Part shown: piece after piece, positions 14,450-57,021 of the stretch
How the letters are laid out: each line of letters begins with the position of its first letter
How positions within the stretch are numbered: position 1 is the stretch's first letter
From: a virus
Lineage: Duplodnaviria > Caudoviricetes
IMG/VR virus record: IMGVR_UViG_3300032050_000128
Span: 1 to 63,249 of that record
DNA length: 63,249 bases
Reading direction: 5' to 3' (one strand)
Made by a program: the position numbers and the translations under genes
The notes under the pieces: model-generated
Told to the model about the DNA's origin: nothing
Databases searched by the model: none
Seen by the model: only the letters and a program-made list of their open reading frames with translations

Positions 14450-14507
14450 CACGTCCCAGCGACGCACGACGGAACCAGACCCACTGACCCACTAGGAGCA
14501 CACCCCC

Positions 14508-15598: not shown

Positions 15599-15599
15599 T
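15571..15599 (+). promoter_or_regulatory. early promoter cassette
   Basis: TTTACA-17-TATAAT. Confidence 0.8.
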
Positions 15600-15605
15600 A
15601 GATGA

Positions 15606-15758
15606 ATGAACAAAGACAGAATTTACAGAGCGGCACGGTACGTGCCGGAGAAGCTGAGACGGATACAGGAGCTGAGACGCTCGTCCGCGAGCGGCCCGAC
15701 ACGGAACGCGAAGGCGTACCGGCGGCACCCAAAGCACAGGGATCGAGAAACGGACTGA
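15606..15758 (+). CDS. leaderless small basic protein (50 aa)
   Basis: ATG 6 nt after the -10; MNKDRIY...EKLRRIQELRRSSASGPTRNAKAYRRHPKH. Confidence 0.6.
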   Translation: MNKDRIYRAARYVPEKLRRIQELRRSSASGPTRNAKAYRRHPKHRDRETD

Positions 15759-15964
15759 CCGCCACGGCGGCGGCCTACTCGAACCACCACTACCACCACC
15801 ACCAGGCCTGGCGCCACCTCCGAGAGGCGGCCCGACACCTGTCCCTTTCCAAGGCGGGCGCGGTAGTCGAGGACGGCGTCGTGCCGGACTGGATGCTGGC
15901 GTTCGAGCCGATGCTGCGGCGTGCCCTGGAGCACAGACCGCTGATCGAGCAGCTGTCGGACTGA
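15755..15964 (+). CDS. hypothetical protein, possible CTG start
   Basis: 3' half of track ORF 15602..15964; CTGA overlap with the previous stop. Confidence 0.45.
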   Translation: MTATAAAYSNHHYHHHQAWRHLREAARHLSLSKAGAVVEDGVVPDWMLAFEPMLRRALEHRPLIEQLSD

Positions 15965-17958: not shown

Positions 17959-18032
17959 CGGGGTGTGGCGCAGCTTGGTAGCGCGGGTGGTTCGGGATCA
18001 CCAGGTCGCAGGTTCGAATCCTGTCACCCCGA
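17959..18032 (+). tRNA. tRNA-Pro(CGG)
   Basis: CGGGGTG/CACCCCG acceptor; GGTGG-TTCGGGA-TCACC; GGTTCGAATCC. Confidence 0.95.
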
Positions 18033-18043
18033 CACGGTATAAT
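18015..18043 (+). promoter_or_regulatory. early promoter overlapping the tRNA-Pro 3' end
   Basis: TGTCACCCCGACACGG-TATAAT-A. Confidence 0.7.
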
Positions 18044-29979: not shown

Positions 29980-30052
29980 GCCGTCTTAGCTCAGTCGGCA
30001 GAGCGACGCTCTCGTAAAGCGTAGGCCTCGGGTTCAATTCCCGAAGACGGCT
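29980..30052 (+). tRNA. tRNA-Thr(CGT)
   Basis: GCCGTCT/AGACGGC acceptor; ACGCT-CTCGTAA-AGCGT; GGTTCAATTCC. Confidence 0.94.
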
Positions 30053-30059
30053 CAAATAC

Positions 30060-39156: not shown

Positions 39157-40941
39157 TTGAGCGTATTCAGACGTACTCCAAGCTCTAACGAGCCCACTGC
39201 GCCAGCTAATTCTTTGCGTGCATCTTCCGCAGCCAACAAAACTATCTCTGACACGGCCGTCTCTACCGCAAGAGGACTGTCATCTATCTTCCTTTCTCCC
39301 GCAACTGCAGTGCCTTTCAGTACGCCTCGCGTAATGACCGCGGCCGCGGCTCAGGTAAAGATGAACAACCGAGATGAGTATGAACAATTTAGACTTCGCC
39401 GTAACTCCGCGAGCTCTGCCTGGCAGAGAGAGGCCTGGGAGTACTACGACGCCATAGGCGAGATCAAGTACGCCTTCAATTTAGTCGCCTCTGTAATTTC
39501 ACGCATTCGTCTTTTTCCCGCAGTCATTGACGATCCCTCCGAGGCGCCCAAGTCAGTAAGAGACGTGCAGAGCGTAGACAAAAATTTAGCCATGGCAGCA
39601 GAGCGTGCAATTCTGCGTCTCGACTCTGCGTACGGCGGTCAGGCCGGTCTCCTACGAGACGCGGCGCTAAACCTCAGCGTATGCGGTGAGTGCTACCTAG
39701 TACAAATACCAGCCAGACCCGGTTCCGGCATTCCAGAGTCTTGGGACATCAAGAGTACTGACGAAGTAGTCGCCGTCACCAACAAGAACAACTCGTTTTC
39801 AATCATCAGCCGTCGCGAGCAAATGGGCGGCGGACAAGCTGGATCTAGACAGGGTGGCTACGAGCTACCTAACAAGGCGTTTGTCGGACGTATCTGGAGA
39901 GCGCATCCTCGTTTCTCAGACGAGGCAGACTCAAGCCTGCGCGGCATGCTCGACCTCTGCGCCGAGCTGCTGCTGCTCAACAGAACATTTCGTGCCACTG
40001 CCCGATCACGTCTAAACGCAGGAGCGCTGTACCTACCAGACGGTTTGTCCGTCGCAGCCAGCGGTGACCCCGACGTAATCGACGATGACTTGTTGAACCC
40101 GGGCGCAGTCACGCAAGAAGCAGAAGACGAGTTTGAAGATCAACTCATCGACGCGATGACCACGCCGATCCGCGACGAAGATTCTGCCAGTGCAGTTGTT
40201 CCACTCATCATTCGCGGACCTGCAGAACTCGGTGACAAGATTAAGCAGTTTAAGTTCGAGCGCTCTTTTGATCCTGCGCTTGCACAGCGTGCCGACAGAG
40301 TACTAGAGCGTATCTTGCAGGGTATCGACATTCCTAAAGACGTAGTCACCGGTATGGCGAACATCAAGTACTCAAACGCACTACAGATCGACGAGTCTAT
40401 GTACAAGGCGCACATCGAGCCACTGATGCTACTGATAGTAGACGCACTCACCGTGGTGTACTTCAGACCGTACTTAATTAGCAACGGCTACACTCCGTCA
40501 GAAGTAGACAGACTAACTATTTGGTACGACCCAAGCGCCGTGTCTACAAGAAACGACCGAGCACAAGACGCCGATCTAGGCTACGACCGACACATTATCT
40601 CCGGAGACGCTTGGCGTAGAACACACGGTTTTTCTTCTGCCGACGCGCCGAGTGAGACCGAGATTGCACTCCGCGTACTAGTTGAAAAGGGTCAAGTCAC
40701 CCCCGAGCTGACCGAAGCAATGCTTCAGGTGTTTACGCCTGACACCATGGCCAGGGTTCGCGGCAACGCCACTGAAAGTCTGCCTGCGGACGTACAGCGA
40801 GTAATGGAACTTGCAAAAGGAGCACAACCTACAACGACAGAAACGACAGAGGAGCCGACAAAAGACGTAGCACCACCAGCAGAGACGGAGCCAGCACAGG
40901 CGCCCGATCCAGGTGAACTACCAGTTGAACCAGAGGCGTAA
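39157..40941 (+). CDS. portal protein
   Basis: WQREAWEYYDAIGEIKY, IWRAHPR...ADS, SRLNAGALYLP, SAVVPLII of actinophage portals; position at head of the module. Confidence 0.88.
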   Translation: MSVFRRTPSSNEPTAPANSLRASSAANKTISDTAVSTARGLSSIFLSPATAVPFSTPRVMTAAAAQVKMNNRDEYEQFRLRRNSASSAWQREAWEYYDAIGEIKYAFNLVASVISRIRLFPAVIDDPSEAPKSVRDVQSVDKNLAMAAERAILRLDSAYGGQAGLLRDAALNLSVCGECYLVQIPARPGSGIPESWDIKSTDEVVAVTNKNNSFSIISRREQMGGGQAGSRQGGYELPNKAFVGRIWRAHPRFSDEADSSLRGMLDLCAELLLLNRTFRATARSRLNAGALYLPDGLSVAASGDPDVIDDDLLNPGAVTQEAEDEFEDQLIDAMTTPIRDEDSASAVVPLIIRGPAELGDKIKQFKFERSFDPALAQRADRVLERILQGIDIPKDVVTGMANIKYSNALQIDESMYKAHIEPLMLLIVDALTVVYFRPYLISNGYTPSEVDRLTIWYDPSAVSTRNDRAQDADLGYDRHIISGDAWRRTHGFSSADAPSETEIALRVLVEKGQVTPELTEAMLQVFTPDTMARVRGNATESLPADVQRVMELAKGAQPTTTETTEEPTKDVAPPAETEPAQAPDPGELPVEPEA

Positions 40942-40943
40942 AC

Positions 40944-41762
40944 GTGTCGTACGAAGAAGAGATAGTCGCCACAACCGAGAGCATCGTGAGCGCGGCACGA
41001 CCATGCTGGGACGGCTACAAGCAGGTCGGAATGAAAAAGAAAAACGGAAAAATGGTTCCTAACTGCGTGCCAGACGAGGCCGCAAACATTGAAGAACTAG
41101 CCGCCGGTAAGCGTCATCCAAAAGCAAAACCAAACGAGCGCGTCCGTGGTTCTGACAAAAACAAACCAAAGTCTGCCACCGCAAAAAAGTCAAAGACTAT
41201 TAAGTTTTCAAAGCGCACCGAGGCCATGCTAGCCGAAAAAGTACGCAAGCACAATGAGAAGGCACCAGAGGGACGCAAGGCGTCTAGCGCCATGCTCAAG
41301 GCGGTGTACAGGCGCGGCGCAGGAGCTTTCTCCGGCAGCCATCGTCCAGGCATGTCTCGCGACCAGTGGGCCGCAGCCAGAGTTAACGCTTTTCTAAAAC
41401 TGCTCAAGAGCGGTAAACCAAAAAACGCAAACTACACCACAGACAACGACCTGCTTCCTGCGTCGCACCCGCGCTCAACTAAGAAAGACAACGCTATACT
41501 GGCTTCAGCCGATGTAATTTGGGCTGACGAACTTTCCGTCGTGCTGCTAGAACCGAGCGAGTATGAAAATTCGGAGCAGGCAGTTTTTGCTCTGACAGAG
41601 TTCTCTGGTCTAGGCTACCACGCCGAGCCAGCCTTCAGAGCAGCCTGGCTGCGAGCCGTGCGAGACGGAGAGTCTCCGTTTGAACGTGCGCTGGCGTTGG
41701 CTGAACTGAGCAGCACCTCTAAAGATCTAGACTTGCTACCAAAAGAAGAGGCGTCGCTATGA
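40944..41762 (+). CDS. head-associated modular protein
   Basis: PCWDGYKQVGMKKKNGKMVPNCVP and LKAVYRRG.GA...QWAAARVNAF modules seen in phage head proteins. Confidence 0.7.
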   Translation: MSYEEEIVATTESIVSAARPCWDGYKQVGMKKKNGKMVPNCVPDEAANIEELAAGKRHPKAKPNERVRGSDKNKPKSATAKKSKTIKFSKRTEAMLAEKVRKHNEKAPEGRKASSAMLKAVYRRGAGAFSGSHRPGMSRDQWAAARVNAFLKLLKSGKPKNANYTTDNDLLPASHPRSTKKDNAILASADVIWADELSVVLLEPSEYENSEQAVFALTEFSGLGYHAEPAFRAAWLRAVRDGESPFERALALAELSSTSKDLDLLPKEEASL

Positions 41763-44700
41763 GCAGCAGCATACTAAACAAGCTTGTAAACGCAATAGAT
41801 AAAAAAGCCGCCGTAGCAAAGAGACCGCAGCGCCTAAACGTACAAAAGCAGGCGCAGCTGCTGTACAACAGCGTTATAGCGTACTTAGCCAACGAGAATC
41901 CAAAAGTACTGCCAGAGCGTCGTGTCACAAAGCGTGCAGCTCTGACTGTGGTGCGCAGGTCACTAGACCGTACTCGAGGGCTTTCTTTCTCTATCAGAGA
42001 GTACCAGGCCTTGCGCGACCTAGGCACGTTTATTTCTCTAAGCCAGAATCCAAACAACAAGACAGCGACGTTTGCCGACAACACCGACTTGCTGCCGCTG
42101 TCTCACCCGCTCTGCAGTCGTAGACACTCGATGACCGCCTCGGCGCTGCGCCAGGCTCGCGGCCGATGGATGTCTGCTGATCCAAGGCTAGAAGACGACC
42201 TTCGTCCAGTGGTTGCGTCTGCTTTTGGCGCTCCGGTCGGAGCGCCTGCGCAGGTTCACGCCGTCGCACAGCTGCAGTCAGTGATTGGTCGATTTGTGCC
42301 AGACGACGTACTTGGCGCAGATGCACCTGCGCTTGTCGCAGCCATAGGTGACGGCAACTCTTCAGCCGCTCGCAGAGCTCGTGCGATGCTACAACGCCGT
42401 GACTCAGAAGGACAGTTTGCCGAGATGGGCGGCGGACGCAGGTGGCTACAAAAGGGACTAGACGGACTAGTTAGTTGGATGACTGGACGCACCATAGCGG
42501 CGGACCCAGACACGGACACCTTTGACGTACAAACATCCGACGGCTCAGTCTACAGAGTACCAGCTAACGCTACCAGCGGCGTGAAGGCGGTACTAAAGAC
42601 AGACACAGACGTAGAAAAAGGTGAAGCACGCTACAGCTCTAAAGACATCGTGCTCAATGAGTCAGACGTCAAACGTATAGACGCGCCTGCAGGTTTTAGA
42701 AAGTACAAAGACACTCTACAAGGCCGTACCGTATACGTAAGCACAGACGACGAGTACGTAGTAACCAAGGTAGAAAAACCAGATCAAAGTCTAAGAGACA
42801 CCATCGCAGGAATACGTAAACACAACGAATTGCAGGAGAGCCTAGAGCCAGACAAGCGCGAGCTGCGCGAACTAGTCGGGGCCGGCGAAAACGGCGCATG
42901 GGACAAAGAAAAGCCTTTTTACATTGCAACTAGAAGAGACGAAGATTCCAGCGGTAAGCCAAAGCTAACTGCAATTGGTGTCTCGCAGGACTGGGCAGAG
43001 ACGCAGAAAATTATCAAGACCGACGAGCCAAGGCTAGACAAGAGCGTAGAAGAGCGCCAGGTAAAGGCTAAACTAAAGAACAACACGTGGGAAGCCTGGC
43101 AAGAAAAAGTAAAGAAGTTCAACGAGCAAGTTAAGGCAAACCATGCCGAACACGTGGCAGAGCGCACCGCCATGCTGAAAAAGCAGGCTGCTGACCGCGT
43201 AGACAGCCAGGGCAACCCGCTCGAGCCAGGCTGGTCAGCTGTACCGCAGGACGAGAAGAGCATTCGTCCACCAAAAGAAGTCAACAACGTTCCAGGAATG
43301 TACAAAGAAGGCGGCCTAGGCAAAGAGCTAAACCCGCTTGACCCTGACCAGGGAGAACTGTTTAACGCAGACCCTACACCTGAAAAGTACGACGTCAATG
43401 ACACGGAGTACGTGAAGAACAACTCGTTACAGCTGACTGACGGCAACGGCGATGTAGTCGCTCGACTAGAACAAAACGATGACGGCTCGTTCCGCGCTCC
43501 GTGGATACTAGGTGAGTCACGTGGCATGGAGTTCAAGACTTTCAAAGACAGAGCAGAGTTTGTCGAAGCACTGAAAGAGAATGCAGTTAAAAACAGAACT
43601 TCCCTAGCCAAGGCCCTAGAAGAAGCTGGCGCAGAGCAAGAAACTATAGACGCAGTAAAGGCAGAGAACGCCACACGAGCAGACATAGCGGCCGCGCTCG
43701 ACAAGGATCCAGCCGTAAACTCAGTCAGAGAGCGCGCAGCAGACGCAGCTTGGGCAGACATGCAGAGTCCTGCAGAAAAAGCAGTGGTAAAGCTTTCAGA
43801 AAGACTATACGCAGGAAACGTGTGGAACCCCACCGAACTAGACGAGATGGTTGCCGGTAAGACCAAGAGCAAGGCGAGACTAGACAGTCCAGACGAAGTC
43901 GAAGAGCCTTCAGTGCCTGCGACACAGCAGAAGAAGGCGGTACTAGACGAGGCTAAGCCATTTGCGTACAGCGCACCTAGCAGCGCCTACAAGATGGACC
44001 TAGACGCGTTTTCTCCAGAGGGACCAGTAGAGGGGCAAGAAAGCTCTGACTACACTGACGACCCAGTAGAGCTGAGCAACCGCTACACTGAGGCAGAGCT
44101 ACGCGAGAGCCTGGCCAAGGCGCTCATAAACAAGCAGAGTGCGTACGACGCAGTTGTGGACGAAGACTTTGACTCTGAGATAGACGACTTTGACCCAGAC
44201 GAGATCGTCGACGAGGACGCGCCGAAAAAGCCAGGACCAAAACCAAAGAGTCAAAAGAAACAGGCGGCCGACTCCGGCGTCAAGACCATGGAAAAAGACG
44301 CAGCGCCAGCCTCTGGCTTTGGCATGCTCGAGTTCAACGCGGGCTCGGAGTACGTACCGGCTGAGGCGCTCTACAAGGCGCTCGAGGAGCAGGGCGTGGA
44401 CGCAGAGCTCTACACAGCGCAGCTGTACGACGCAAAGCTCGGCGAGAATAAAAACGTACAAGCGCTGCTAGATTCTCGCAAGGGCGAGGAGGGCATCGGC
44501 GCGGCGACACCAGACCTAGCCGACGTATTCCCTACGCAGGCGGACCTAGACGAGATGGACTCTATCGAAGTTCCGAGCGAAGGTACCGATAAGCTGCAGA
44601 TAGACGAGACAGACGAGGGACAGGCGAAGACGTTCGAGCTTGCCAAAGCCATGAACGACTACAAGAAACAGTACAACGAAAAAATAGCTGCCGGTGAAGT

Positions 44701-47700
44701 AGATGAGGCAACCGAGTCAGTCTACAACGACTTCATGGACGTAGACTCTGGCGACAAGGACTATTTGTCCCTCGTAGAAAAACACTTTGACCAGGACAAG
44801 TTTGGCACCGCCGACGACCCGTTCCGCGCACTGTGGGGCGCGTGGATGATGGAGGGCCCGGACAACGGACAAAAGAACGTAACACCCGCGCTGTACCAGT
44901 ACGCGCAGGACACTCTCGGCATGGACGATGAGGAAGCCGGCAAGTTCTCAGAAAACATCGTAGACTCCTACGGCAACCCAGCCGAGCTAGAAGAGGCAGT
45001 GGTCGCGATAGAGGCAGAACCAGAACTGTTCAACTCCGAAGACCCTAAGTACGCGACCGCCCAGGCGCTGCTAAAGATGTCGGCAGTAAACTCAGGCACC
45101 AATGCTACTAAGGTTTGGAAGTCGTACGACCTCTCAGAGGACCAGGGCTTTGCAGACGCACTGTCCGAAGAGGGCAACGTAGTCTCGTTTCCACCAGACT
45201 CCTGGAGAAAAGCCACCGGAGACATTGACGACGTACTAGAGGGTAAGACCGGAGAAAACACTTTCGTGGTAGTTCTCGACGAGGGCAACGGTACCACCAC
45301 ACCAATAGGACAAGACCGAGAGCTGGTCTGGGGTCAGTACGTGGTCGAAGATGTGACTGACAAAGACGGCAACACAATTGTTCGGCTTCGTAAGCTGACG
45401 CCGGCAGAGAACATAGGTATAAACGAAGAGGGCAACTACACGCCTTACTTGATACCAAACGAAAACATAGACCTGCCAGAAGGCTACAACCTGCCAGACA
45501 CCGACGCCTACGCCTCCGAGTACAACGGAGCAGACGGCAACGAGGTCGCAGCCGGCTTCCCAGAGGGCTTCACAGACAGTCCACTGTACATCGCAGAGAA
45601 CTGGGAAACTGAGACGCTGCTAGACTCACTGCGCATTGCAGTCGAGCCAGACCTAGAAGAAGAGAGCGCCGGGTACGCGATACTGGAGTATCCGCTTGAC
45701 GGCGGCACCGACATCCTGGTCAGCGGTCAAGCCATTCGTGACGCACTGCAGATACAGGGTGTCAACACAAACCTATTTTTCCGCGACCTAGCAGGCACCG
45801 GAGACGAGACCGTTCCACCGTCCGAGGCAGACGTAGCACGACAGAACAAGTCGGCGCTCAGCAAGTCTCAGAACCCGACGGACGCGATCGGAACCAGCAT
45901 TGGTAACTCGTTTGACATCACGGAGTGGAAGAAGATCGGCAACCAGCTCGGCTCCAACGAGGGCGGCACCTACGAGGCTCCTGACGGCAGCAAGTACTAT
46001 GTAAAGACACCAAAGAGTCCGCTGCACGCCGGCAACGAGGTACTGGCCTCAGCGCTCTACCGCCGCGCCGGCGTAGACGGCGCCGACACGTTCTTTGGCG
46101 TGGACGAGGCAGACAACATGGTCACCGTCTCACCGATACTGCCGGACGCAAAGCCAGACATGGCGCAGAAAATTGAAGAGCCTAGCTACAAGAAGGCGCT
46201 GCAAGAGGGCTTTGCCATAGACGCCTGGCTAGCCAACTGGGACGTCGCCGGTCTTGCCATGGACAACGTAGTCTCAGTAGACGGCAAGCCAAACCGCGTA
46301 GACACCGGAGGAGCACTGCTCATGCGCGCCATGGGCAAGCCAAAGGGCGCGTTGTTCGGCGACAAGGCCGACGAGTGGGAGACGCTTCGCGACCCAGACA
46401 TGAATCCACAGTCCGCAAAGATTTTTGCAGACATGACCGACGTAGACCTAAAGACCAGCGCCTCCAAGCTGCTAGACGTAACCAGAGCAGACATCGACAG
46501 CCTCGTGGCAGCCGCGTTTCCAGACGAACCAGTACTGCAAAAGACCGTCGCAGACAAGCTAGAGATGCGCAGAATGGACATCCTCGAGCGCGCTGGACTC
46601 ACTGACAAAGACACCACAGTTACTGCCAACAACCTAAAGAACGTACAGGCGCATACACAGACTATCATGGACATTACCGGACTGGACGAGGAAAATGCCA
46701 ACAAGGTGCGCAACGTCATTGACGACGAGTACGGACTAGACTGGTCAGAAGCGACCGCGTCTGAGACCGGAGAAGCCATCAAGGAGGCGTTGAACAGCGA
46801 CGCCTACGACGGACCCCTACCAGAGGGCTTTAAGTCTACAAACAAGAACAAAAAAACAGAGACAAAAGCTCCGTCTGAGCCACCTCTAGACACTGCAGAA
46901 GAGGAAGAAGAAGACGAACTCAAGCCTGAAGACGCGTACGTCATAGCCAACGACTTTGCAGACGAGACACTGGATGCAATTAAACTGTACAGGGAGCAGA
47001 CCGACCTGCCGGTAGAAGACCTGGACCTGAAAGAAAAATTAGACGAGCTAGAGAAGACAGTACAACAAAAACAGCCAGTCGATAATCCAGACGACATTGC
47101 AGAGCTACAGGGCGAAGTAGAAAAAATTGCAGACTACATGCAAGAAAAGCACGGCAAAGGCGGAGAGTTTAAGAGCATCGCAGAAAATCTACGCATAGCA
47201 GGCGACGTAGCCAAGAAAGACAAGATAGACGTAGTGAAGTCACCAATTATCACGGCCGAAGAGGTGGACGCAAGTAAGTACGCAAAGAACGCCGGAGCCA
47301 CGCAGTGGTTTGACGACGCCAACCCACCCAAGCTGTCAGACGACGGTAACTTTGTAGAGGTAACGCTGAACGACATCGGCGGCGACATGCCAAAGTTTGG
47401 CGGCGACGAGGGACCAGTAGACCTGGCCGATCTCGGCGTGCCGTACATTGTCATCGAGGGAGAAGCGCAAGACAACACCTACGACGTACAGCTACGCGTG
47501 CCACTAGACAAGATGGACGAGTTTACCGAAACCTGGAACGAGCTAAAACAAGCTGACCTAGGTCCGTTCATACAAGCACCCGCTGGCTACTACGAGAAGC
47601 CAGAAAACTTCTTTGGCGACGTCTACAGAGACGCCAAAGCCGACGTGTCTGTACCCGAGCCAGAAAAAACCGTAGTCGAAGCTCCAGCCGAAGACAGTAG

Positions 47701-50700
47701 TCCGGTTGGTAAGAGTCTCTCCGCCGACGGCAAGACACCAATCGCGGCCGGCATGAAGGTAAAGTCTACAAAGACTGGCGAAGTCGGCGTAGTCTCTAAG
47801 TTAGATGTGTACAAGAAGAAAGGCGTTGTGTTCCCTGACTACGCCTGGGTAAAATTTGAAGGCAAGAAAGACAAGCAGCTGAAAACAACCAAGACGCTGC
47901 AAATTGTAGACGACGGAGGTTTCCCAGAGGGGGGACCTGGAGGAGGTGAACCAGACGCACCGGCTCCGACAGAGCCAACACCGAGCAGTGAGCCTGCCGT
48001 CCCTTTATCCCCTGAGCCGACAGCGGCTGACGACACAGTAGTACTGAAAACTTCTGAAACACTAGAGGCGCTGCACGACCAGATAGACAAGGCCATCAAG
48101 GACAAGAAGCTGTTGAAGTTCGTGTACAACGGCAAGGAACGCACCGTGCGCCCGCTCAACACCTGGGACAACCCAAAAACAAAAACTAAAAACCTGGTTG
48201 CAGAAGACCTAGGAGACGGCGGAAAGAAGAAAAACTTTTCTACGCACGTAATAGAGTCAACCACGAGCGCGTCCGCAGACCCAGTCAAGCCAAAGCCCGC
48301 CGATCTTCCGGCAGAACAAAAGTACACCGCACCGCCGGAGCCGCAGTTCGGCGCGACAGACTCGTACAAAGTTACAAACATAAACGACACGACGACGTTC
48401 GTGTCTGGCACCTATTTTCTCAACGAGACCGTGGAGTACACTCCGAAGGAGCTAGCTGAGCTCCTAGGCAAGCCGTACGAGTACGGCTCTGGCGGCAAAG
48501 TGCAGCAAGAGTGGTCAATGCGCTTTGAGAGCCCGGACGGCGCAGTTGTATTTGCCAGGCTGTACGACTGGAAAACACTAGACTCGCTTGACCCAGACAA
48601 GAAGTACGACTGGCACATCGGTGGAAACAACGCCAAGGCGACGGAGCTAGTCAAGAACCTACTCGAAGCAAAGAAGAAAGAAAAGAGCAGCGCAGCCGAG
48701 TCTAAGAGCGCGACCACGGACACGCCTGTCGGCAATCCAGCGTTGGCCCTAGACAAGAAAGACTTAGACAACCCAGAGTTGTACGAAAAGAAAGACGTCA
48801 AGGTAGAAAATCTTAAAGTTGGAGACTACATTCCGTACGGCTCCGGCTGGGCGCGTGTGGCGTCGCACGGTGCTGCCTACAACAAAGGAAAGAAGACGCA
48901 CAAGTTTCGCATGTTTCTACAGCACACTAACGGAAATCAACAGTATGTAGAGTACAGTGGAAAGACAGTAATAAAGAGCACTCGTTCACCGAAGAGCGGC
49001 ACCGGAATAAACACACCGCCGCCGACCGTACCTAATCCGCCGCCGCCGCCGTCTTCGTCCAGCAGCACTGGGTCTCCGCTAAAGGCGTACACTCCAGACG
49101 AGTGGGCAGACGCCGCCAAGAAAACAGTAGCCAACAACGAGATTGACTTTGGTCCATTTGACACAAACACCTCGCTTAAAAACGGCGCACTTGCTACAAA
49201 AAATTGGATACAATTTTGGAAAGAAAATAATAATCAACCGATAGACTTTGTAACTTACTCTCCTTACAGTGGTGTTTTTATAGTCGGCATAAAAGACCAG
49301 TCAATTCCAAGAATGATTACGAGCGATGGCAAAAATACGCAAGCGCCAGCGTCCAACGAGTACTACAAAGATAATCCAAGCCTTAAGCACGTACAGCCAG
49401 ACAGTCCGCACTCGGTCTGGCTGGGCGTAGACTTTGAGAAGGACGATCTCGCCCCAATCAAAGACGATGTCGCACCGCCACCAGGCGCAAATCAAAAGTT
49501 TAAGAAGGACAGATTTGGTAACTGGTTGTACAAAGGCGTAACCGTGACCGACGCAAATGGCGACGAAGGTGTGATCTACGGTTTTCCAGGTGCAAAGGGC
49601 TACGAGAACTACGTACAGGTAGAGTTCCTAGACGGAAGCAAGAAAGTCCGCTCCGTCGACAAAGTAACGGGTGGCAGGCTATTTGACCAGACAAAACTGA
49701 CAGAGGCGGGTCCTGGAGTAAACGTACCAGAGGTAGACGACCCAGATTTGGCTAGCGTAGACTGGTCACAGAGCGAGATCACTGGCGCAGGGGTCAAGTC
49801 TCTAGTAGACGCAATTGCACACGTGCAGAGCAGCCCGGCTGCCGGAGCACGCGGTCGGTCAGCTGCAGTAGACGCAGGAGACGTTGAAGACCTAGACGTG
49901 CACATGATGACTGTAGTAGACGGCGACAAGACCTACACACGTGCCAGCTTCAAGCTCACGTCTTGGGCTGGAGACGCTCTGGTAGCTGAACTTCTCAAAA
50001 AAGTGCCAAACACAGAAGAGTACGATCTATTCATAAACCAAGGTATAAAAATGCCGAAGCTGCGAAGAGACGTAGATGGCAACATGGCAATACTAAAGTC
50101 TGGTACTCAGACTGAGTGGGAGTACACCTCTTCCTACAGTGAAACAACTACATACGTAATAACAGACAAAGTTACCGGTGCAACTATCAGAGTATACAGA
50201 GCAAATAGAGACGCAAAGCCAGTAAGCAGTATGAGTGCGCAACGAGACGGACTTGCTTTTCACAATAGAGTAGAAATACTAGTGCCAGAGCAGCAGGACG
50301 CAAACTCTACCGCCAACGTAATTGCAAGAGGCATGAAGCTGGGCGGAGTGCGCGCTCCAAGACCGGCAAAGAAAGAGGACGTAAGAGTTTTAACTGAAAA
50401 TCGTCTGATGAGCATCTTTGGCAAAGAAACTGATCCGTCAAAAAACGTAGTTGGAGCTGCCCGCGTACAGAAGCTTAAGGCGATAGAAAAGATGCTGGGA
50501 CTGCCGTTTGAACAGATGTGGCTAAACTTAGACACTCCGGCCTACGACCTAAACGACAGACTGTCGTACAGAACGAGCAAGGCAATAGCAGAGTACATGG
50601 TTAAAAAAACAGAGACTGGCGCCATAACTCACTCGTTTGGAATCAAGAGCTCGTCTAGTCCAGACGCAGCGGCCCAGGCTATGTTCAACCTGCTCATGAT

Positions 50701-51166
50701 GGAAGACGGCCTAAAAGCTACGTCAGTTCGCTGGACAGAGGGAATCGGCGGTCACGGCGACTCAAGCGAGGCAGACATAAAAACAGGAGGAGCAGACTAC
50801 CTGTTCACAAAGCCTAAGGCAACCATGAAGCCCTACTCTGTAGCAACAGACAACCACGCGTACTTTCACTTTGACCCGATTAAGCTGTACTCACGGCTGG
50901 ACTTCTGGGCTAACTTCAAGGACCAGTACGGAAAGCGCATGAAGGAGACCGACCCGATCGGCGAGATAAAACCAGCCAAGCCCACTTCGGGAAGCGGCAC
51001 CTACGAACTGATGTTTAAGAACGGAATATCGTGGGCAGACCTGTCCATCATAAGTGTGTCCCCGGCGGTGCGTGAACGTCTAGTTAAAATGCTACTCGAC
51101 AATGGGGTACCGCCAGAGAAGTACGGCGCCTCATCGTGGGACGACCTTATACCGGTGAAGAAGTAA
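41759..51166 (+). CDS. giant multidomain head-region (probable internal/ejected) protein, 3135 aa
   Basis: Uninterrupted ORF between portal and protease; PI3/4K-HipA-like kinase motifs (YYVK, NEVLAS, DAWLANWD, RVDTG); WYL-like, SH3-like and ART-like segments. Confidence 0.85.
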   Translation: MSSSILNKLVNAIDKKAAVAKRPQRLNVQKQAQLLYNSVIAYLANENPKVLPERRVTKRAALTVVRRSLDRTRGLSFSIREYQALRDLGTFISLSQNPNNKTATFADNTDLLPLSHPLCSRRHSMTASALRQARGRWMSADPRLEDDLRPVVASAFGAPVGAPAQVHAVAQLQSVIGRFVPDDVLGADAPALVAAIGDGNSSAARRARAMLQRRDSEGQFAEMGGGRRWLQKGLDGLVSWMTGRTIAADPDTDTFDVQTSDGSVYRVPANATSGVKAVLKTDTDVEKGEARYSSKDIVLNESDVKRIDAPAGFRKYKDTLQGRTVYVSTDDEYVVTKVEKPDQSLRDTIAGIRKHNELQESLEPDKRELRELVGAGENGAWDKEKPFYIATRRDEDSSGKPKLTAIGVSQDWAETQKIIKTDEPRLDKSVEERQVKAKLKNNTWEAWQEKVKKFNEQVKANHAEHVAERTAMLKKQAADRVDSQGNPLEPGWSAVPQDEKSIRPPKEVNNVPGMYKEGGLGKELNPLDPDQGELFNADPTPEKYDVNDTEYVKNNSLQLTDGNGDVVARLEQNDDGSFRAPWILGESRGMEFKTFKDRAEFVEALKENAVKNRTSLAKALEEAGAEQETIDAVKAENATRADIAAALDKDPAVNSVRERAADAAWADMQSPAEKAVVKLSERLYAGNVWNPTELDEMVAGKTKSKARLDSPDEVEEPSVPATQQKKAVLDEAKPFAYSAPSSAYKMDLDAFSPEGPVEGQESSDYTDDPVELSNRYTEAELRESLAKALINKQSAYDAVVDEDFDSEIDDFDPDEIVDEDAPKKPGPKPKSQKKQAADSGVKTMEKDAAPASGFGMLEFNAGSEYVPAEALYKALEEQGVDAELYTAQLYDAKLGENKNVQALLDSRKGEEGIGAATPDLADVFPTQADLDEMDSIEVPSEGTDKLQIDETDEGQAKTFELAKAMNDYKKQYNEKIAAGEVDEATESVYNDFMDVDSGDKDYLSLVEKHFDQDKFGTADDPFRALWGAWMMEGPDNGQKNVTPALYQYAQDTLGMDDEEAGKFSENIVDSYGNPAELEEAVVAIEAEPELFNSEDPKYATAQALLKMSAVNSGTNATKVWKSYDLSEDQGFADALSEEGNVVSFPPDSWRKATGDIDDVLEGKTGENTFVVVLDEGNGTTTPIGQDRELVWGQYVVEDVTDKDGNTIVRLRKLTPAENIGINEEGNYTPYLIPNENIDLPEGYNLPDTDAYASEYNGADGNEVAAGFPEGFTDSPLYIAENWETETLLDSLRIAVEPDLEEESAGYAILEYPLDGGTDILVSGQAIRDALQIQGVNTNLFFRDLAGTGDETVPPSEADVARQNKSALSKSQNPTDAIGTSIGNSFDITEWKKIGNQLGSNEGGTYEAPDGSKYYVKTPKSPLHAGNEVLASALYRRAGVDGADTFFGVDEADNMVTVSPILPDAKPDMAQKIEEPSYKKALQEGFAIDAWLANWDVAGLAMDNVVSVDGKPNRVDTGGALLMRAMGKPKGALFGDKADEWETLRDPDMNPQSAKIFADMTDVDLKTSASKLLDVTRADIDSLVAAAFPDEPVLQKTVADKLEMRRMDILERAGLTDKDTTVTANNLKNVQAHTQTIMDITGLDEENANKVRNVIDDEYGLDWSEATASETGEAIKEALNSDAYDGPLPEGFKSTNKNKKTETKAPSEPPLDTAEEEEEDELKPEDAYVIANDFADETLDAIKLYREQTDLPVEDLDLKEKLDELEKTVQQKQPVDNPDDIAELQGEVEKIADYMQEKHGKGGEFKSIAENLRIAGDVAKKDKIDVVKSPIITAEEVDASKYAKNAGATQWFDDANPPKLSDDGNFVEVTLNDIGGDMPKFGGDEGPVDLADLGVPYIVIEGEAQDNTYDVQLRVPLDKMDEFTETWNELKQADLGPFIQAPAGYYEKPENFFGDVYRDAKADVSVPEPEKTVVEAPAEDSSPVGKSLSADGKTPIAAGMKVKSTKTGEVGVVSKLDVYKKKGVVFPDYAWVKFEGKKDKQLKTTKTLQIVDDGGFPEGGPGGGEPDAPAPTEPTPSSEPAVPLSPEPTAADDTVVLKTSETLEALHDQIDKAIKDKKLLKFVYNGKERTVRPLNTWDNPKTKTKNLVAEDLGDGGKKKNFSTHVIESTTSASADPVKPKPADLPAEQKYTAPPEPQFGATDSYKVTNINDTTTFVSGTYFLNETVEYTPKELAELLGKPYEYGSGGKVQQEWSMRFESPDGAVVFARLYDWKTLDSLDPDKKYDWHIGGNNAKATELVKNLLEAKKKEKSSAAESKSATTDTPVGNPALALDKKDLDNPELYEKKDVKVENLKVGDYIPYGSGWARVASHGAAYNKGKKTHKFRMFLQHTNGNQQYVEYSGKTVIKSTRSPKSGTGINTPPPTVPNPPPPPSSSSSTGSPLKAYTPDEWADAAKKTVANNEIDFGPFDTNTSLKNGALATKNWIQFWKENNNQPIDFVTYSPYSGVFIVGIKDQSIPRMITSDGKNTQAPASNEYYKDNPSLKHVQPDSPHSVWLGVDFEKDDLAPIKDDVAPPPGANQKFKKDRFGNWLYKGVTVTDANGDEGVIYGFPGAKGYENYVQVEFLDGSKKVRSVDKVTGGRLFDQTKLTEAGPGVNVPEVDDPDLASVDWSQSEITGAGVKSLVDAIAHVQSSPAAGARGRSAAVDAGDVEDLDVHMMTVVDGDKTYTRASFKLTSWAGDALVAELLKKVPNTEEYDLFINQGIKMPKLRRDVDGNMAILKSGTQTEWEYTSSYSETTTYVITDKVTGATIRVYRANRDAKPVSSMSAQRDGLAFHNRVEILVPEQQDANSTANVIARGMKLGGVRAPRPAKKEDVRVLTENRLMSIFGKETDPSKNVVGAARVQKLKAIEKMLGLPFEQMWLNLDTPAYDLNDRLSYRTSKAIAEYMVKKTETGAITHSFGIKSSSSPDAAAQAMFNLLMMEDGLKATSVRWTEGIGGHGDSSEADIKTGGADYLFTKPKATMKPYSVATDNHAYFHFDPIKLYSRLDFWANFKDQYGKRMKETDPIGEIKPAKPTSGSGTYELMFKNGISWADLSIISVSPAVRERLVKMLLDNGVPPEKYGASSWDDLIPVKK

Positions 51167-52226: not shown

Positions 52227-54115
52227 GAGTAGCCGGCCGGTATGGAAGTTTGTATCTATTTGTAGAAGAAAATCGTGCAGCTGTGCTAGACACGGAGACT
52301 AATACAATTGTGCGTACTGGAACCAGCAGTGTCTTGTTAGCAAGCGCAAATTGGCAAAAACCAGGCATTAAGCCAACAAGAGCGATGACAGACCTAGCAC
52401 TCGGTGCCCTAACTGACTTGGACATTCGCATAGTCGCAAGCGGAGACCGCATGTACACGGTGCCAAAAGCCGCGCAGGCAGAGGCAAAACGAGGACTAGA
52501 GTGGCGAGCAAAGCACAATCGTGGCGGAACTCCGGTGGGCGTAAACAGTGCAAGAACGTTAGCTCGCGGCGGACAGATTGGCATCAGAAAGATTAGACAC
52601 ATTGCAAAGTACTTTCCACGTCATGAAGTAGACAAGAAGGGCAAGGGCTGGAGTCCAGGAGAAGACGGCTATCCTAGCAGAGGTCGTATTGCCTGGGCGC
52701 TTTGGGGTGGAGACCCTGCTTGGCGCTGGGCTAGAGCAATTGTCGAACGAGAAAACAAGAAAAAGAAGGGCGTACGCGCAGACGCCTACTCCGGTATGCC
52801 AGACGCAGAATACGATTTGTTTGGCGATAATACTGAAGACCTCAGAGAATTTTTTGACGCCGAGCTGCTAGACGTAGAGCAGGCTGCAGAGTTCGTAGTT
52901 CGCATAAACTTAGAAGACGGTGGCATAGACCGTCTGTACAAGGTGCAACCAGAAGGAGAAGTATTCGTCTGGGACGGCAGCGGATGGGAAGACCTAGGAC
53001 ACACCGCACACGACTTCAACACATACGATAAGTCTCTAGACGAACCGTACGACAAGGCGCCTAGAGCACACGTCTCGATAGACGCTATGTCCGCCATGAA
53101 AGTTTCTGCATTTTTACAACAAAATCCGTACTCGAGCATCGGACCGTCCATGCTGGAACCTGAAGAAGCTATACTAATGGCAGACGCAGCAGATGAAATA
53201 GACTGGGAACTCATAGACAGGGCCGCAGTCACTGCCGCCGGAGAAGAGGGCCTGAGCAAAGACGACACCCCGGGAGTGTACACCCCAGAAGAGAGATCAG
53301 AAAAAGCCAGCGGTCAAGTTAGAGATGCAGCCGGAAAGTTTGCGGCGGCCGGCACAAAAGTATTCATAGGCGGAGACAGGGCAGCTGTTGGCACAGTCAA
53401 GTCAGTAGACAGCAAGACTGGTCAAGTCAGCGTAGAACTGTCAGACGGCAAATTAGTCACAGTTGGAGCGCAGTTCACACAAGGTGTAGACGACGCGACG
53501 CCGGTGCAGACTTCACCTGAAAGATTTGATGGAGGCAGGCTAGACACCACCGGTCTACTGGCCAAGCCTAGAGTGCCGCAAGGGAGCTCGTTGGCAACGC
53601 TGCCTGGACTGCTACCGGCCCTGACTGAAAACGACGTGTCACTGCTGATGAGAGACTGGGGAGCTTGGGCAGCTGCCCAACGTGTAAGCCCAGAGGTAGC
53701 ACCTAACGTACAGTCATCACCTGCCCAGGGCAGCAACTTAAAGATTGGAAACACAGATTCAGTGCAGAGTCCAACATCGGCACCAGCGCCTGCACCGGCA
53801 ACACCAGTAACCTACGGAATAGTGCAGTCCGCGCCAAATGCCTACAATGATCCCATGCTACGCAGTTGGCTAGATCAAAAGTACAAGGGTAAAGATGGAG
53901 TAGAGCGTTTTGTAAACAGAGGTTGGTACAACCCTATAGTTAAACCGGGTCTAGAGGGAATGATCGAGAAACCAGAAGAAGACGCGTCTAAGATTACTGC
54001 AAAACGCAACAGACCAGGCGAGCAGCGAGCAGCAGTTGGAAAAGGACCAAACGTCTACTACCAACCAAATAAGATTCCAACCGCCACTCCTTCAGTAGTG
54101 CCTAAGGGTAAATAA
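52223..54115 (+). CDS. head-region modular protein
   Basis: GTGA overlap; GGTPVG..AR..YFPRH..IAWALWGGD module; QVRDAAGKF. Confidence 0.75.
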   Translation: MRVAGRYGSLYLFVEENRAAVLDTETNTIVRTGTSSVLLASANWQKPGIKPTRAMTDLALGALTDLDIRIVASGDRMYTVPKAAQAEAKRGLEWRAKHNRGGTPVGVNSARTLARGGQIGIRKIRHIAKYFPRHEVDKKGKGWSPGEDGYPSRGRIAWALWGGDPAWRWARAIVERENKKKKGVRADAYSGMPDAEYDLFGDNTEDLREFFDAELLDVEQAAEFVVRINLEDGGIDRLYKVQPEGEVFVWDGSGWEDLGHTAHDFNTYDKSLDEPYDKAPRAHVSIDAMSAMKVSAFLQQNPYSSIGPSMLEPEEAILMADAADEIDWELIDRAAVTAAGEEGLSKDDTPGVYTPEERSEKASGQVRDAAGKFAAAGTKVFIGGDRAAVGTVKSVDSKTGQVSVELSDGKLVTVGAQFTQGVDDATPVQTSPERFDGGRLDTTGLLAKPRVPQGSSLATLPGLLPALTENDVSLLMRDWGAWAAAQRVSPEVAPNVQSSPAQGSNLKIGNTDSVQSPTSAPAPAPATPVTYGIVQSAPNAYNDPMLRSWLDQKYKGKDGVERFVNRGWYNPIVKPGLEGMIEKPEEDASKITAKRNRPGEQRAAVGKGPNVYYQPNKIPTATPSVVPKGK

Positions 54116-57021
54116 TGAGCAAAAAAGAACTAACACCAGAGACTTCAGACATGGCAGCGGTGTACATGGCCATAGTCGCGCCTGACGACCCGCTGGCAGT
54201 TCTAGACTTAGTAGCGCTTATTCCAGCCTCCTCTGACTCTACCAAGCCGACTACGTTTACGCGTAAACCCGGCAAGTGGGAAAAAAACGAAAGAATACTT
54301 GCCGATCTAAACTCACCCACACCTCCTCCCTTGGTAGTGCTAGACGACCAGGCGCTGACCGAGGTACTGGAGCAGATCGACGGTGCAGCAGTGACTGCAG
54401 CGGCGTACGCATGGGTGGAGCCTGTAGACTGTCGGCTAACTGCCATTTATAGCTCTAGCACCGGTGACTTGGTCGCAGTGTCAGCTGCAGGAGGACTTGA
54501 TCGAAACAGAGGCAATGCCGAAAAGTTAAGACGGTACTGGCTCTATGGCAAAGGCGCTGCAAAAATTCGTTGGAACACTCCCGGTGACTGGACTAGGTGC
54601 TTTAGACAACTGTCAAAGTACATGGGACCGCGCGCCAAAGGCTACTGCGCCCTACGGCACAAAGAGGCCACTGGAATGTGGACAGGAGACAAACGCCACC
54701 GCCAGCTGCACGGAAGAAGGGGTGGAAAGTCTTTTTCTACCGCTGACTTTTTAGTAGACAGCGACACGTACATGTCTAGAAGCGTTCTGGCTGCTAGGCA
54801 TAAAGAAGCAGTTCAAAGATTTACTGCAAACTTAGTTGCATCAGGCACAGTGGAGCTAGAGGCAACAGAGCCAGGTGCATTCAAGATTCCTCTGGTGATA
54901 CCGGAAGGTATAGAGTCTGGTGACGGAAGAATTTTTGAAGAGGGTGCAATAAGCATGAGAGACCTTCCTCTTCCTTTGTTATGGCAGATAAAGACTGGCG
55001 AAGGCCATGCTGGTTCTGTAGTAGTGGGTCGAATAGATCAAATGGAGCGGGTAGAAGGCGGTATTGGTAACGCAATAGGCGTATTCGACAGAGGCGCTTA
55101 TGGTGCAGAGGCAGAAAGACTGGTGCGCAGTGGTTTTATCAGAGGCGTCTCTGCAGACCTAGATCAGTTTGAAGCAAAGGAAGAAAAACAGCAAAAAGAC
55201 GACCCGGAAGAGGCAAGCCAAGACCTCGGTGGGGGTAAAATTACAATCAACAAAGCTAGAGTTATGGCAGTTACGTTAGTGTCAAAACCGGCGTTTCAAG
55301 AATGCCGTATTTACCTCGACGACCAAGTTGAGACAGAGCAGGAGAGCCAAGTGAGCATACCAGACGGAGTGTACGCAGAAGAAATGGACCCGATGGAGGC
55401 GTCCGCGCTTGTCGCGTGCGGTCTAATAGCAGGTTCAATACCAGTAGTCCCACCGGCAACGTGGTTTTCTGACCAAGGTCTGTCCAAGCCAACCCCGCTG
55501 ACAGTGACTGACGAGGGACAGGTGTTCGGGCACATCGCGGCTTGGCATGTAGACCACATTGGAATGTCCTACGGCACTAAACCGCCTAAGAGCAAGAGCA
55601 AGTATGCGTATTTCCACACTGGAGTAGTTCGTACAGACGACAGCAAAGATGTTCCTGTCGGACAACTGACACTGGCAGGCGGACACGCCTCGCTGAGTGC
55701 CACGGCGGCAGAGGCTGCCCGTCACTACGACGACACCGCGTCCGCAGTTGCAGACGTACACGCCGGAGAAGACGCTTTTGGCATCTGGGTAGCAGGTGCA
55801 GTACGTCCAGGCACCACTCCAGAGCAGGTCAGAGCCCTTCGTGCATCGGCACCGTCAGGTGACTGGAGACCGATAAAGGGTGGACTAGAGCTAGTAGCAG
55901 TGTGCCAAGTAAACGTACCAGGATTTCCAATTGCTAGGGCACGAGTTGCTTCTGGCCAGGTTATGGCACTGGTCGCCGCCGGTGCAGGTGTGCTGGCACG
56001 TCTGAAATCAGACCCAGTCACCGAATTGGCACAAAGAATTGAAAAGTTGGAACAGTTAGAAAAGCAACCACTTATAGCTGCTAGCGCTGCCGCAACCGCG
56101 AGAATTGCCGCAGCCAGAGCAGAGCGAAACGAGCGACTAAGGTCTCGCGCAGCTGAACTCGCCATTCGGGTAGACGGCGAAGAAGCCACCTGGGACGACA
56201 ACATGAACGAGTTTGGGTTCATCTCACGCAGGGTCAGAAAAAAGCTGGCTGCAGAGAAAAAAGCAATGCCAGACGGCTCGTTCCCGATTAGAAACATACA
56301 AGACCTGAAGAACGCTATTCAGTCGTACGGACTGGCCAAAGACAGCAGAAAAGCTGCAGTAAAACGACACATCATGCGTCGTGCTAGAGGGCTGGACGCG
56401 CCTGATCTAATTCCAGATAAGTGGAAAAGCAACTCCGCCGAGCTAGCCGCAGAAACCGCAGACCTAAAAGCCAGAGTAGCCGCCGCAGCCGCACCACTGA
56501 AGTACGAAGGTGGAAAGTACACCCCGGACACCCAACCACGCGACGAAGTGGGAAAGTTTAGAGACGTACTCGCCCGGCTGAAGTCTGACCTAGGTCAAAG
56601 CGGAAACCAGGGAGTGGTAGAAGACATTCAAGAGGCAGATCGCCTGGCACAGGCCGGAGACTATGATGAAGCGGCCAAGGCAGCCGGAAAGCTGATCAAC
56701 GTAGTGGAGCGCATTGACACGGGCGCCCTGAACCCAAAGGCGCTCGAGAACGTCCGCGAGGGCGCAAGACAGCTGGGTGAGGTCCTGGCCAACCTGCCGC
56801 TACCGTTCGGAAATGAAACAGCAAAGTTAAAGTACTCGGAGCTGCCGCCGGCCCTGAGAGACCTGGTCAAAGATATGATCGACCGGGTAGTAGACAAGAT
56901 TGGCAAGGAAGACGCCAAGGAGGCAATCGCCGGACTGGAGTCTTTCATGTCAGGAGGAGACGTACTCACACAGAGTGAGGTCTCTTCCGAGATGAGCAAG
57001 CTACTGAGGTTACTGACCTGA
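54115..57021 (+). CDS. capsid maturation (prohead) protease with accessory modules
   Basis: ESGDGRIF, LPLPLLWQ...GH..SVVVGRI, GVSADLD, VTLVSKPAF, SGDWR; extra KIRWNTPGD and MPDGSFPI modules. Confidence 0.85.
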   Translation: MSKKELTPETSDMAAVYMAIVAPDDPLAVLDLVALIPASSDSTKPTTFTRKPGKWEKNERILADLNSPTPPPLVVLDDQALTEVLEQIDGAAVTAAAYAWVEPVDCRLTAIYSSSTGDLVAVSAAGGLDRNRGNAEKLRRYWLYGKGAAKIRWNTPGDWTRCFRQLSKYMGPRAKGYCALRHKEATGMWTGDKRHRQLHGRRGGKSFSTADFLVDSDTYMSRSVLAARHKEAVQRFTANLVASGTVELEATEPGAFKIPLVIPEGIESGDGRIFEEGAISMRDLPLPLLWQIKTGEGHAGSVVVGRIDQMERVEGGIGNAIGVFDRGAYGAEAERLVRSGFIRGVSADLDQFEAKEEKQQKDDPEEASQDLGGGKITINKARVMAVTLVSKPAFQECRIYLDDQVETEQESQVSIPDGVYAEEMDPMEASALVACGLIAGSIPVVPPATWFSDQGLSKPTPLTVTDEGQVFGHIAAWHVDHIGMSYGTKPPKSKSKYAYFHTGVVRTDDSKDVPVGQLTLAGGHASLSATAAEAARHYDDTASAVADVHAGEDAFGIWVAGAVRPGTTPEQVRALRASAPSGDWRPIKGGLELVAVCQVNVPGFPIARARVASGQVMALVAAGAGVLARLKSDPVTELAQRIEKLEQLEKQPLIAASAAATARIAAARAERNERLRSRAAELAIRVDGEEATWDDNMNEFGFISRRVRKKLAAEKKAMPDGSFPIRNIQDLKNAIQSYGLAKDSRKAAVKRHIMRRARGLDAPDLIPDKWKSNSAELAAETADLKARVAAAAAPLKYEGGKYTPDTQPRDEVGKFRDVLARLKSDLGQSGNQGVVEDIQEADRLAQAGDYDEAAKAAGKLINVVERIDTGALNPKALENVREGARQLGEVLANLPLPFGNETAKLKYSELPPALRDLVKDMIDRVVDKIGKEDAKEAIAGLESFMSGGDVLTQSEVSSEMSKLLRLLT

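Follow-up and report, generated by a model that had tools for sequence, protein, structure and literature searches.

What kind of protein is encoded by a 9.4-kb gene embedded among the head genes of a freshwater virus, and what could it do there? The question is raised by IMG/VR record IMGVR_UViG_3300032050_000128 (Duplodnaviria; Caudoviricetes). The window, that is, the whole stretch of DNA analysed here, is the complete record of 63,249 nucleotides (CheckV completeness 37%), and the gene, on the plus strand at positions 41759 to 51166, encodes a protein of 3135 amino acids (aa), hereafter the giant protein. The answer that we favour, and regard as moderately probable, is that this gene is a member of a large unnamed polyvalent family residing in the head-morphogenesis modules of actinobacterial phages, whose products would be packed in the capsid and would modify the host. 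Polyvalent proteins are single large polypeptides with 2-15 distinct domains encoded by phages or conjugative elements (Iyer et al. 2017, PMC5512222).

The giant gene and its family

The 9.4-kb open reading frame (ORF) is a real and intact gene. Its start ATG overlaps the TGA of the upstream DUF5824 gene in an ATGA coupling, and a purine-rich stretch (AAGAAGAGG) lies on its 5′ side. The product has a mass of 343 kDa, an isoelectric point of 4.71, 536 D+E against 373 K+R residues and one Cys only; at least 10 modules are separable within it, and its linkers are long, acidic and proline-rich. The first-pass annotation, made from the letters of the sequence, had described precisely such an acidic multidomain protein in the head module, and all the motifs that it quoted were found in the translation where it had placed them. 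Moreover, at least 0.93 of the words sampled from the ORF are present in 19 public sequencing runs, ten of which are possibly the source sample, and the holders of the sampled words number 20, drawn from 16 studies. In particular, contigs from three independent freshwater runs not flagged as source span 30 of 30 bins of the gene with substitutions only and zero indels, and other contigs carry full-length homologues of 56-84% identity. The ratio of nonsynonymous to synonymous substitution rates (dN/dS) against the orthologue of locus L004 is 0.18 overall and 0.02-0.45 for the individual modules; purifying selection, in this comparison, acts on every one of them. Along the gene the synonymous rate (dS) against the same orthologue drops from 0.94 in the N-terminal frame to 0.07-0.2 in the final third, which suggests intragenic recombination between lineages. 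Three short contigs from one metatranscriptome run, which might have indicated transcription, were set aside as possibly carried-over DNA.

Searches of the whole protein and of ten overlapping 400-aa pieces returned nothing significant in Pfam, PHROGs, NCBIfam and PADLOC. In the PDB, neither the protein sequence nor the profiles of its N-terminal, kinase-like, C-terminal and other parts gave a genuine match, the sole candidate (E 0.026) being a repeat protein judged spurious. Relatives of the protein are numerous. Specifically, 39 were found in 5.8 billion proteins, with lengths of 2376-5348 aa and with the Pfam domains RNase_T, NUDIX, ADPrib_exo_Tox, ART, UvrD helicase, WYL, KTSC, GNAT, ArdcN and MPTase-PolyVal. 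A pattern scan of IMG/VR identified 233 relatives among 300 matched stretches, and over many contigs the homologues measure 2376-7256 aa. According to a BLAST map, the parts common to the relatives are aa 5-430, 735-910, 1210-1350, 1385-1615 and 2590-3117, together with small modules inside aa 1970-2200; aa 440-730, the acidic linker at aa 1630-1960, aa 2222-2312 and aa 2430-2575 are confined to the closest relatives.

The family is built of a fixed N-terminal frame (N-frame), a variable effector middle and a fixed SH3-like/~490-aa C-terminal frame (C-frame). In a census of 149 proteins of at least 1500 aa, chosen by likeness to the query and with truncated genes included, the N-frame, the kinase-like domain (KIN) and the C-frame occurred together in 115, KIN and C-frame in 14, the C-frame only in 10, N-frame and C-frame in 6, the N-frame only in 3, and N-frame and KIN in 1. 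The C-frame profile, run against 1.84 billion sequences, retrieved 2145, 1359 and 289 cluster representatives at E<=1e-3, 1e-10 and 1e-30, respectively. Among its best 150 matches it is mostly the C-terminal end of proteins of 2-7 thousand aa, and the source names of cluster members are generic, referring only to accessory domains. Short stand-alone forms are rare (6 proteins for KIN, 1 for the C-frame) and most of them look like fragments. The combination of domains, which the first-pass annotation did not recognise, is thus a recurrent one.

Two observations on individual family members may be added. In P0070, P0191, P0192 and P0205, which reach 7004-7256 aa, one polypeptide can hold as many as four WYL-like copies and two kinase-like domains, along with five to six modules that are ADP-ribosyltransferases (ARTs) or resemble them. 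At locus L030, unlike all other loci, the C-frame match (9786) precedes those of the N-frame (12109) and KIN (14638), an order that may reflect a rearrangement, two genes or a misassembly.

The modules of the giant gene, all on the plus strand, are as follows.

41759..51166 (+): whole gene, ATG start, 3135 aa
41759..43048 (+): N-frame (aa 1-430), in most family members; BLAST map, 30-sequence alignment
41837..42133 (+): DUF5824-like sub-module (~aa 27-125), paralogue of the upstream 272-aa protein
42356..42643 (+): 'RD' sub-module (~aa 200-295) with motif RDxxGxF, common to the downstream 656-aa protein
43961..44488 (+): module M1 (aa 735-910), conserved, with a ~50-aa repeat unit at aa 851-905; BLAST map, hidden Markov model (HMM)
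45056..45403 (+): ART-like module (aa 1100-1215), a degenerate homologue of R-S-E ARTs by hhalign
45656..45793 (+): second copy of the ~50-aa repeat (aa 1300-1345); reciprocal HMM E 3.7e-8 and 1.2e-8
45911..46603 (+): KIN (aa 1385-1615) with GSNxGG loop; 66-sequence alignment
47717..47914 (+): 'SH3a' (aa 1987-2052), one family with aa 2580-2645
48056..48298 (+): WYL-like module (aa 2100-2180); transitive homology through relative P0027
48422..48694 (+): 'YDWK...WHIGG' module (aa 2222-2312), lineage-specific, in 8 close relatives only among the gathered sequences
48776..49003 (+): 'SH3b' (aa 2340-2415), unlinked to SH3a/c or WYL by profile comparison
49496..49693 (+): 'SH3c' (aa 2580-2645), abutting the C-frame in nearly all relatives
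49706..51163 (+): C-frame (aa 2650-3135), enzyme-like; 36-sequence alignment

The N-frame has zero matches in Pfam and PDB and shares parts with the proteins encoded around it. Specifically, positions 22-117 of its profile match the upstream DUF5824 protein (E 1.4e-9), and positions 197-286 match the downstream 656-aa protein (E 9.4e-5, and 1.2e-13 upon iteration). N-frame sub-modules are likewise found in neighbouring proteins of the uncultured Actinomycetia phage DSL-LC01. In addition, a motif R-D-x-x-G-[KRQ]-[FW] is present in three head-module proteins, namely at aa 214 of the giant protein (42398-42418), aa 393 of the 656-aa protein (53321-53341) and ~aa 809 of a 968-aa protein (56539-56559). 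Six-frame ORFs totalling 56,070 residues contain it at just one other place, within a doubtful ORF on the reverse strand, and all three sites are also kept in locus L004. The motif may serve these proteins as a common signal for docking, targeting or processing.

The C-frame has the appearance of an enzyme. In its 36-sequence alignment D2705, E2710, T2734, E2880, N2881, R2902, H2958, R2991, D3006, Y3014, R3046, D3055, E3083 and K3087 are invariant, out of about 16 invariant polar or charged residues. In particular, H2958, Y3014 and E3083 are kept in 36/36, alongside 13 other invariant polar residues. This set would be compatible with an ART of the H-Y-E type, in line with the C-terminal ART fold suggested at first pass, and equally well with other enzymes. 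The C-frame gave no Pfam or PDB profile match, and in hhalign it reached a probability (Prob) of 0.1-0.2% with the profiles of R-S-E ARTs and of the ART-like module, H-Y-E ARTs being outside the scope of this comparison.

The kinase-like domain and its ADP-ribosyltransferase partners

The KIN alignment comprises 66 sequences with identities of 36-91%. In 66/66 of them fifteen columns are invariant (K1416, E1427, D1488, N1493, D1495, G1498, N1503, R1513, D1515, G1517, G1518, R1523, G1526, K1529 and R1604), and the GSNxGG loop is nearly so. The elements follow one another as a glycine loop, a Lys, an N-E helix, an Asp/Asn-rich segment and a DxG, an order that, in our assumption, recalls HipA and the type II PI4-kinases; the ATP-binding, catalytic and metal-related roles of these elements are likewise presumed. 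Pfam matches are sub-threshold, with HipA_C in 11/66 sequences (best E 0.017), HipA_2 in 6/66 (E 0.031), a trace of LPD22 in 1/66 (E 0.07) and zero matches to PI3_PI4_kinase among the 66 members. When compared by hhalign, KIN obtained a Prob of 0.5% with a single E. coli HipA, and of 6% (E 0.006) with a low-diversity alignment of 40 HipA sequences, the 30 aligned columns lying around the N-E helix; when extended, the alignment stays collinear, without significance. Of the kinase-like domain described by the first-pass annotation, therefore, the motifs stand, being invariant and widespread, and the matches to kinase families are weak (E 0.017, Prob 6%). 'Kinase-like' is the best reading of KIN, short of a demonstrated identity. 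As all the polar residues invariant in the family are kept in the giant protein, and as dN/dS in this domain is 0.10, KIN is expected from the first of these two facts to be probably active.

The second module of interest, at aa 1100-1215, has zero match in Pfam itself and is, by profile comparison, homologous to the PF03496-type ARTs. In fact, hhalign of its profile against that of PF03496-type ARTs, both obtained from one protein set, gave a Prob of 96.8%, and of 95.2% (E 2.6e-8, 104 columns) once the single sequence that both profiles had retrieved was dropped. The two profiles align in register at the Arg, Ser-x-Ser and ExE columns, and the controls remained low (0.3% for KIN against ART, 0.1% for the C-frame against ART). 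R, S and [EQ]xE are kept in 34 of 54 family segments, and relatives such as P0010-P0015 retain R-S-ExE; the giant protein has K1121 in place of the Arg, keeps S1148 and has Q1185/R1187 at the ExE, an alternative shift by one residue giving D-R-E. Following the loss of the catalytic Arg and ExE, the module is predicted to be probably non-catalytic. The degenerate VIP2/ART-like stretch of the earlier description is in this way borne out.

KIN is not a peculiarity of the giant proteins. In the Gordonia phages Forza and Phendrix, gp78 and gp66, respectively, are KIN proteins encoded immediately 3′ of the portal gene, and Forza gp80, next-but-one to gp78, carries an ART domain. By tblastn, KIN was also found in proteins of cultured phages such as Pseudomonas phage Dolphis (gp117) and in similar proteins of enterobacterial phages. 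The phage-like replicon p2463-1 of Pseudomonas juntendi displays in order a DUF935 portal, a 'phage minor head protein', a 1466-aa KIN+ART protein, an XkdF-like protease and a capsid protein. Moreover, KIN is present in 6 of 72,556 plasmid records. On the linear MOBP megaplasmid of Streptomyces sp. NBC_01340 (L129, 570615-595232), an unannotated frame of >4232 aa, which extends beyond the examined stretch, ends in KIN (HMM E 3e-83), and phage head genes have no match nearby; this frame probably encodes a polyvalent protein belonging to a conjugative megaplasmid.

An ART or ART-like module accompanies KIN in 143 of 212 distinct KIN-bearing polypeptides. Among the loci examined that have no C-frame, an ART is found in 21 of 23 KIN-bearing ORFs, and in the frameless loci of the series L024-L082 (for example L026, L049 and L060), as well as in L002, L084 and L130, KIN is almost always fused to a C-terminal PF03496-type ART. 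This co-occurrence, in one ORF or two genes away as in Forza, points to a functional pair. A bolder reading, speculative but live, would join two statements: that KIN represents atypical kinases of a new family, delivered by the virion, distantly similar to HipA and PI4-kinases and functionally paired with ARTs across unrelated lineages, and that every giant delivers, in its ~490-aa C-terminal domain (>2000 clusters), another new enzyme, which might be an H-Y-E ART. As an example of what the pair might share in this tentative scheme, KIN and the ART could have a common host target, or could act on defence signals derived from NAD or ADP-ribose.

The remaining modules of the variable middle are smaller. 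Residues 2105-2166 share 48% identity (E 2e-9) with aa 1022-1082 of the relative P0027, and the P0027 segment reaches 39.5 bits with Pfam WYL against a cut-off of 21.8 and forms one HMM family with the giant's module. A direct match to WYL (PF13280) is absent in the whole giant protein and in its 400-aa pieces; the homology of aa 2100-2180 to a bona fide WYL domain, proposed at first pass, is nonetheless supported through this relative. SH3a and SH3c recognise each other reciprocally in HMM searches (E 2.1e-4 and 3.3e-5), before either had joined the other's model. No significant match to SH3, KOW or Tudor families was obtained for the small modules, labelled SH3/KOW-like at first pass, in the 36 members scanned, the small-barrel matches being weak (KOW E 0.096 in 1/36, MSSS SH3 E 0.11 in 1/36, Tudor_2 in 2/36). 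The YDWK...WHIGG module is without match in Pfam.

Head-module context and competing explanations

The delivery part of the proposed reading depends on the genes that surround the giant, of which the following are needed here, together with a gene that hints at the host.

39157-40941: portal, upstream of the giant gene; phrog_776, E 2.3e-103
40944-41762: DUF5824 protein, 272 aa, between portal and giant gene; Pfam E 2.6e-9
3672-3881 (-): WhiB-family gene; PF02467, 84 bits, E 5.7e-25

The genes are ordered as portal, DUF5824, giant, a 347-aa protein, the 656-aa protein, the 968-aa protease-like protein and the major capsid protein, and this order recurs in related IMG/VR loci. The 968-aa protein matches phrog_18402 (E 6.9e-57), and its aa 417-646 are 58% identical to gp84 of Gordonia phage Forza, annotated as 'head maturation protease'. 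The major capsid gene, downstream of it, matches phrog_777 (E 1.6e-84). PDB look-ups of the 656-aa and 968-aa neighbours returned nothing. As to the location 'between portal and protease' proposed at first pass, the order is right, with one gene between portal and giant and two between giant and protease; as to the minor-head slot of MuF proteins, the position after the portal is indeed occupied by the giant, with the small DUF5824 gene intervening, and the MuF domain is missing. The position is not peculiar to this window, as a portal match was found in 58 of the 79 IMG/VR loci retained from the pattern scan and in 58/58 it precedes KIN, with both in the same orientation.

The capsid protein shares 74.6% identity with its DSL-LC01 counterpart and ~50-58% with the capsid proteins of large Microbacterium, Arthrobacter and Gordonia phages. 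In addition, the WhiB-family gene, a marker of actinobacteria and their phages, fits an actinobacterial host.

Two features of the window lie outside this module. Positions 13900-15800 form an island of ~70% G+C in a contig of ~52% G+C, with long ORFs in several frames; a 307-aa frame at 14508-15431 (+) is the most protein-like, a search for tandem repeats found none, and the island may have been acquired recently from a host of high G+C content. Three tRNA genes are present, for Gln-CTG (9859-9930), Pro-CGG (17959-18033) and Thr-CGT (29980-30053).

Judging from gene context, the giants are probably packed in the capsid and delivered with the DNA. In the scenario that would follow, the giant protein would be made late, along with portal and protease, and one of its fixed frames would recruit it into the procapsid. 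It would then exit the capsid together with the DNA, and KIN and the C-terminal domain would modify targets in the newly infected host, serving takeover of the cell or counter-defence. As a concept, the packaged effector toolkit proposed at first pass is well founded on the polyvalent proteins described in PMC5512222 and PMC9503650, and on the enzymes of the relatives; its packaging component derives from gene position.

Several points weigh against this reading. The sole clear effector homology within the giant protein, that to ARTs, is catalytically degenerate, and KIN has no significant kinase match in Pfam, NCBIfam, PADLOC, PHROGs or PDB profiles. No MuF domain (PF04233, Phage_Mu_F) was detected at E<=1 in the giant protein or across the 63-kb contig, in searches that did match control genomes. 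Both fixed frames could be structural. Virion proteomics or descriptions of cultured carriers were not found in the open-access literature searched. Furthermore, the kinase clade reported among polyvalent proteins in PMC5512222 is derived from eukaryotic-type protein kinases (ePK), has His/Asp hallmarks and belongs to Verrucomicrobia/Chlamydia and Bacteroidetes. These hallmarks are unlike the D-x4-N-x-D...DN...DxG pattern of KIN, a comparison made by description, and File S2/Table S1 of that paper might already contain KIN.

Among the alternatives, the one that survives best, unlikely as we hold it to be, sees in the giant a mainly structural or ejection protein (internal head, 'inner body' or trans-envelope), whose frames would be essential and whose enzyme-like modules would be accessories or relics. 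The constancy of the ends across the family and the variability of the middle are in line with it, as are the long acidic and proline-rich linkers, the occurrence of N-frame sub-modules in neighbouring head-module proteins and the repeated SH3-like modules, which could serve binding. The same can be said of the ART-like module, catalytically dead and yet held at a dN/dS of 0.09. This alternative is less easily reconciled with the invariance of the ~16 charged or polar residues of the C-frame (n=36), which is typical of enzymes, and of the polar residues of KIN (66/66). Moreover, many relatives carry bona fide enzymes, and the KIN+ART proteins of other phage lineages do without both frames.

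It is improbable, in our judgement, that the giant remains unpackaged and works as a late cytoplasmic enzyme complex, for host takeover, counter-defence or assembly, placed in the head module by co-regulation only. Position alone leaves packaging unproven, and the protein has neither MuF nor any other known capsid-targeting domain. WYL-like modules, in turn, are ligand or nucleic-acid sensors in regulators, which would suit such a complex. Against it speak the conservation, in unrelated phage lineages, of the slot after the portal (or after portal and minor head protein), the translational coupling of the start to a head-module gene and the N-frame modules held in common with head-module proteins.

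A very improbable proposal is that of a 'Trojan horse' toxin, whereby the ART modules of freshwater actinophages would hit the eukaryotic grazers that ingest infected cells. The idea was put forward in PMC6802176, together with 24 freshwater phages carrying VIP2-like ARTs, some of them predicted to infect Actinobacteria, and the present phage is widespread in lake metagenomes. The ART-like module of the giant, however, is without the catalytic Arg and ExE, family scans of the protein recognised no translocation or receptor-binding component, and the pairing of KIN with ART extends to phages of soil Gordonia, enterobacteria and Pseudomonas. The head-module context, for its part, points toward delivery into the bacterial host. 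Finally, an artefact of chimeric assembly or of genes fused by sequencing errors, which the unusual length and the lack of a database family match might evoke, deserves next to no credit in view of the indel-free coverage by contigs of three independent runs, the homologues of 2376-7256 aa on many contigs and the dN/dS of 0.18.

Relation to known systems and significance

The reading that we prefer, a packaged polyvalent protein, places the giant beside systems already described. Like the polyvalent proteins of PMC5512222, the giant family brings together many effector-type domains in one large protein encoded beside head genes. In both, the enzyme most often found as a partner is ART, the relatives carry RNase_T, NUDIX, UvrD, GNAT and ArdcN/MPTase-PolyVal, and KIN also occurs on a Streptomyces MOBP megaplasmid. 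Head-packaged ARTs are the emphasis of a later survey from that group (PMC9503650). The effector domains of the class are present in the relatives, whereas the giant itself has only the degenerate ART-like and the WYL-like modules. It also differs in that its fixed frames match no Pfam family, the LPD families included, and in that no fusion to MuF or portal is found in it.

A counterpart is found in DSL-LC01, where a hypothetical protein of 3289 aa (WJZ48510, OQ999401) occupies the same slot, in the order portal, DUF3626 protein, small ORF, DUF5824 protein, giant. It has N-frame, ART-like, KIN, SH3, WYL and C-frame modules like those of the giant, and it differs in an identity of ~34% over the aligned 32% and in three WYL-like copies near its N-terminus. 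In the description of that phage (PMC10611076), WJZ48510 is mentioned in none of the 12 passages covered, out of 19 that name the phage. Forza gp78, Phendrix gp66, Dolphis gp117 and the p2463-1 protein are recognised by the KIN HMM with E values of 1.8e-54 to 3e-78; unlike the giant, these four have 734-1479 aa and no N- or C-terminal frames. The ARTs of Forza gp80 and Dolphis gp117 (both in Pfam) and of p2463-1 match the PF03496-type profile, in contrast with the degenerate one of the giant; no ART was found in Phendrix gp66. With respect to HipA and the PI3-PI4-kinase-like proteins, KIN would share the order of elements, whose roles are presumed, and weak Pfam hits, and with ~230 aa it has half the length of HipA. 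As with T4 Alt and the ARTs fused to MuF, which are packaged in the head, an R-S-E ART-fold module lies in a protein encoded among head genes; the giant, a putative virion protein, differs from these in the lack of Arg, ExE and MuF. In other words, the polyvalent kind of protein is already known, and what is new to the open-access literature searched are the fixed frames, KIN and the pairing of KIN with ARTs in head modules.

Of all phage proteins, the polyvalent ones are predicted to act earliest in the host, and bench studies of them are nearly nil; in one recent case, an E. coli phage was shown to need a putative polyvalent protein for its fitness (PMC11879866). The existence of cultured carriers such as Forza and Phendrix, which grow on G. 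terrae 3612, makes packaging, processing, kinase activity and host targets directly testable. The family to which the giant would belong is large, as judged by its 2145 C-frame representatives, and widespread in lakes, and its kinase-like domain recurs beside ARTs in head modules, both in phages of actinobacteria and in those of proteobacteria.

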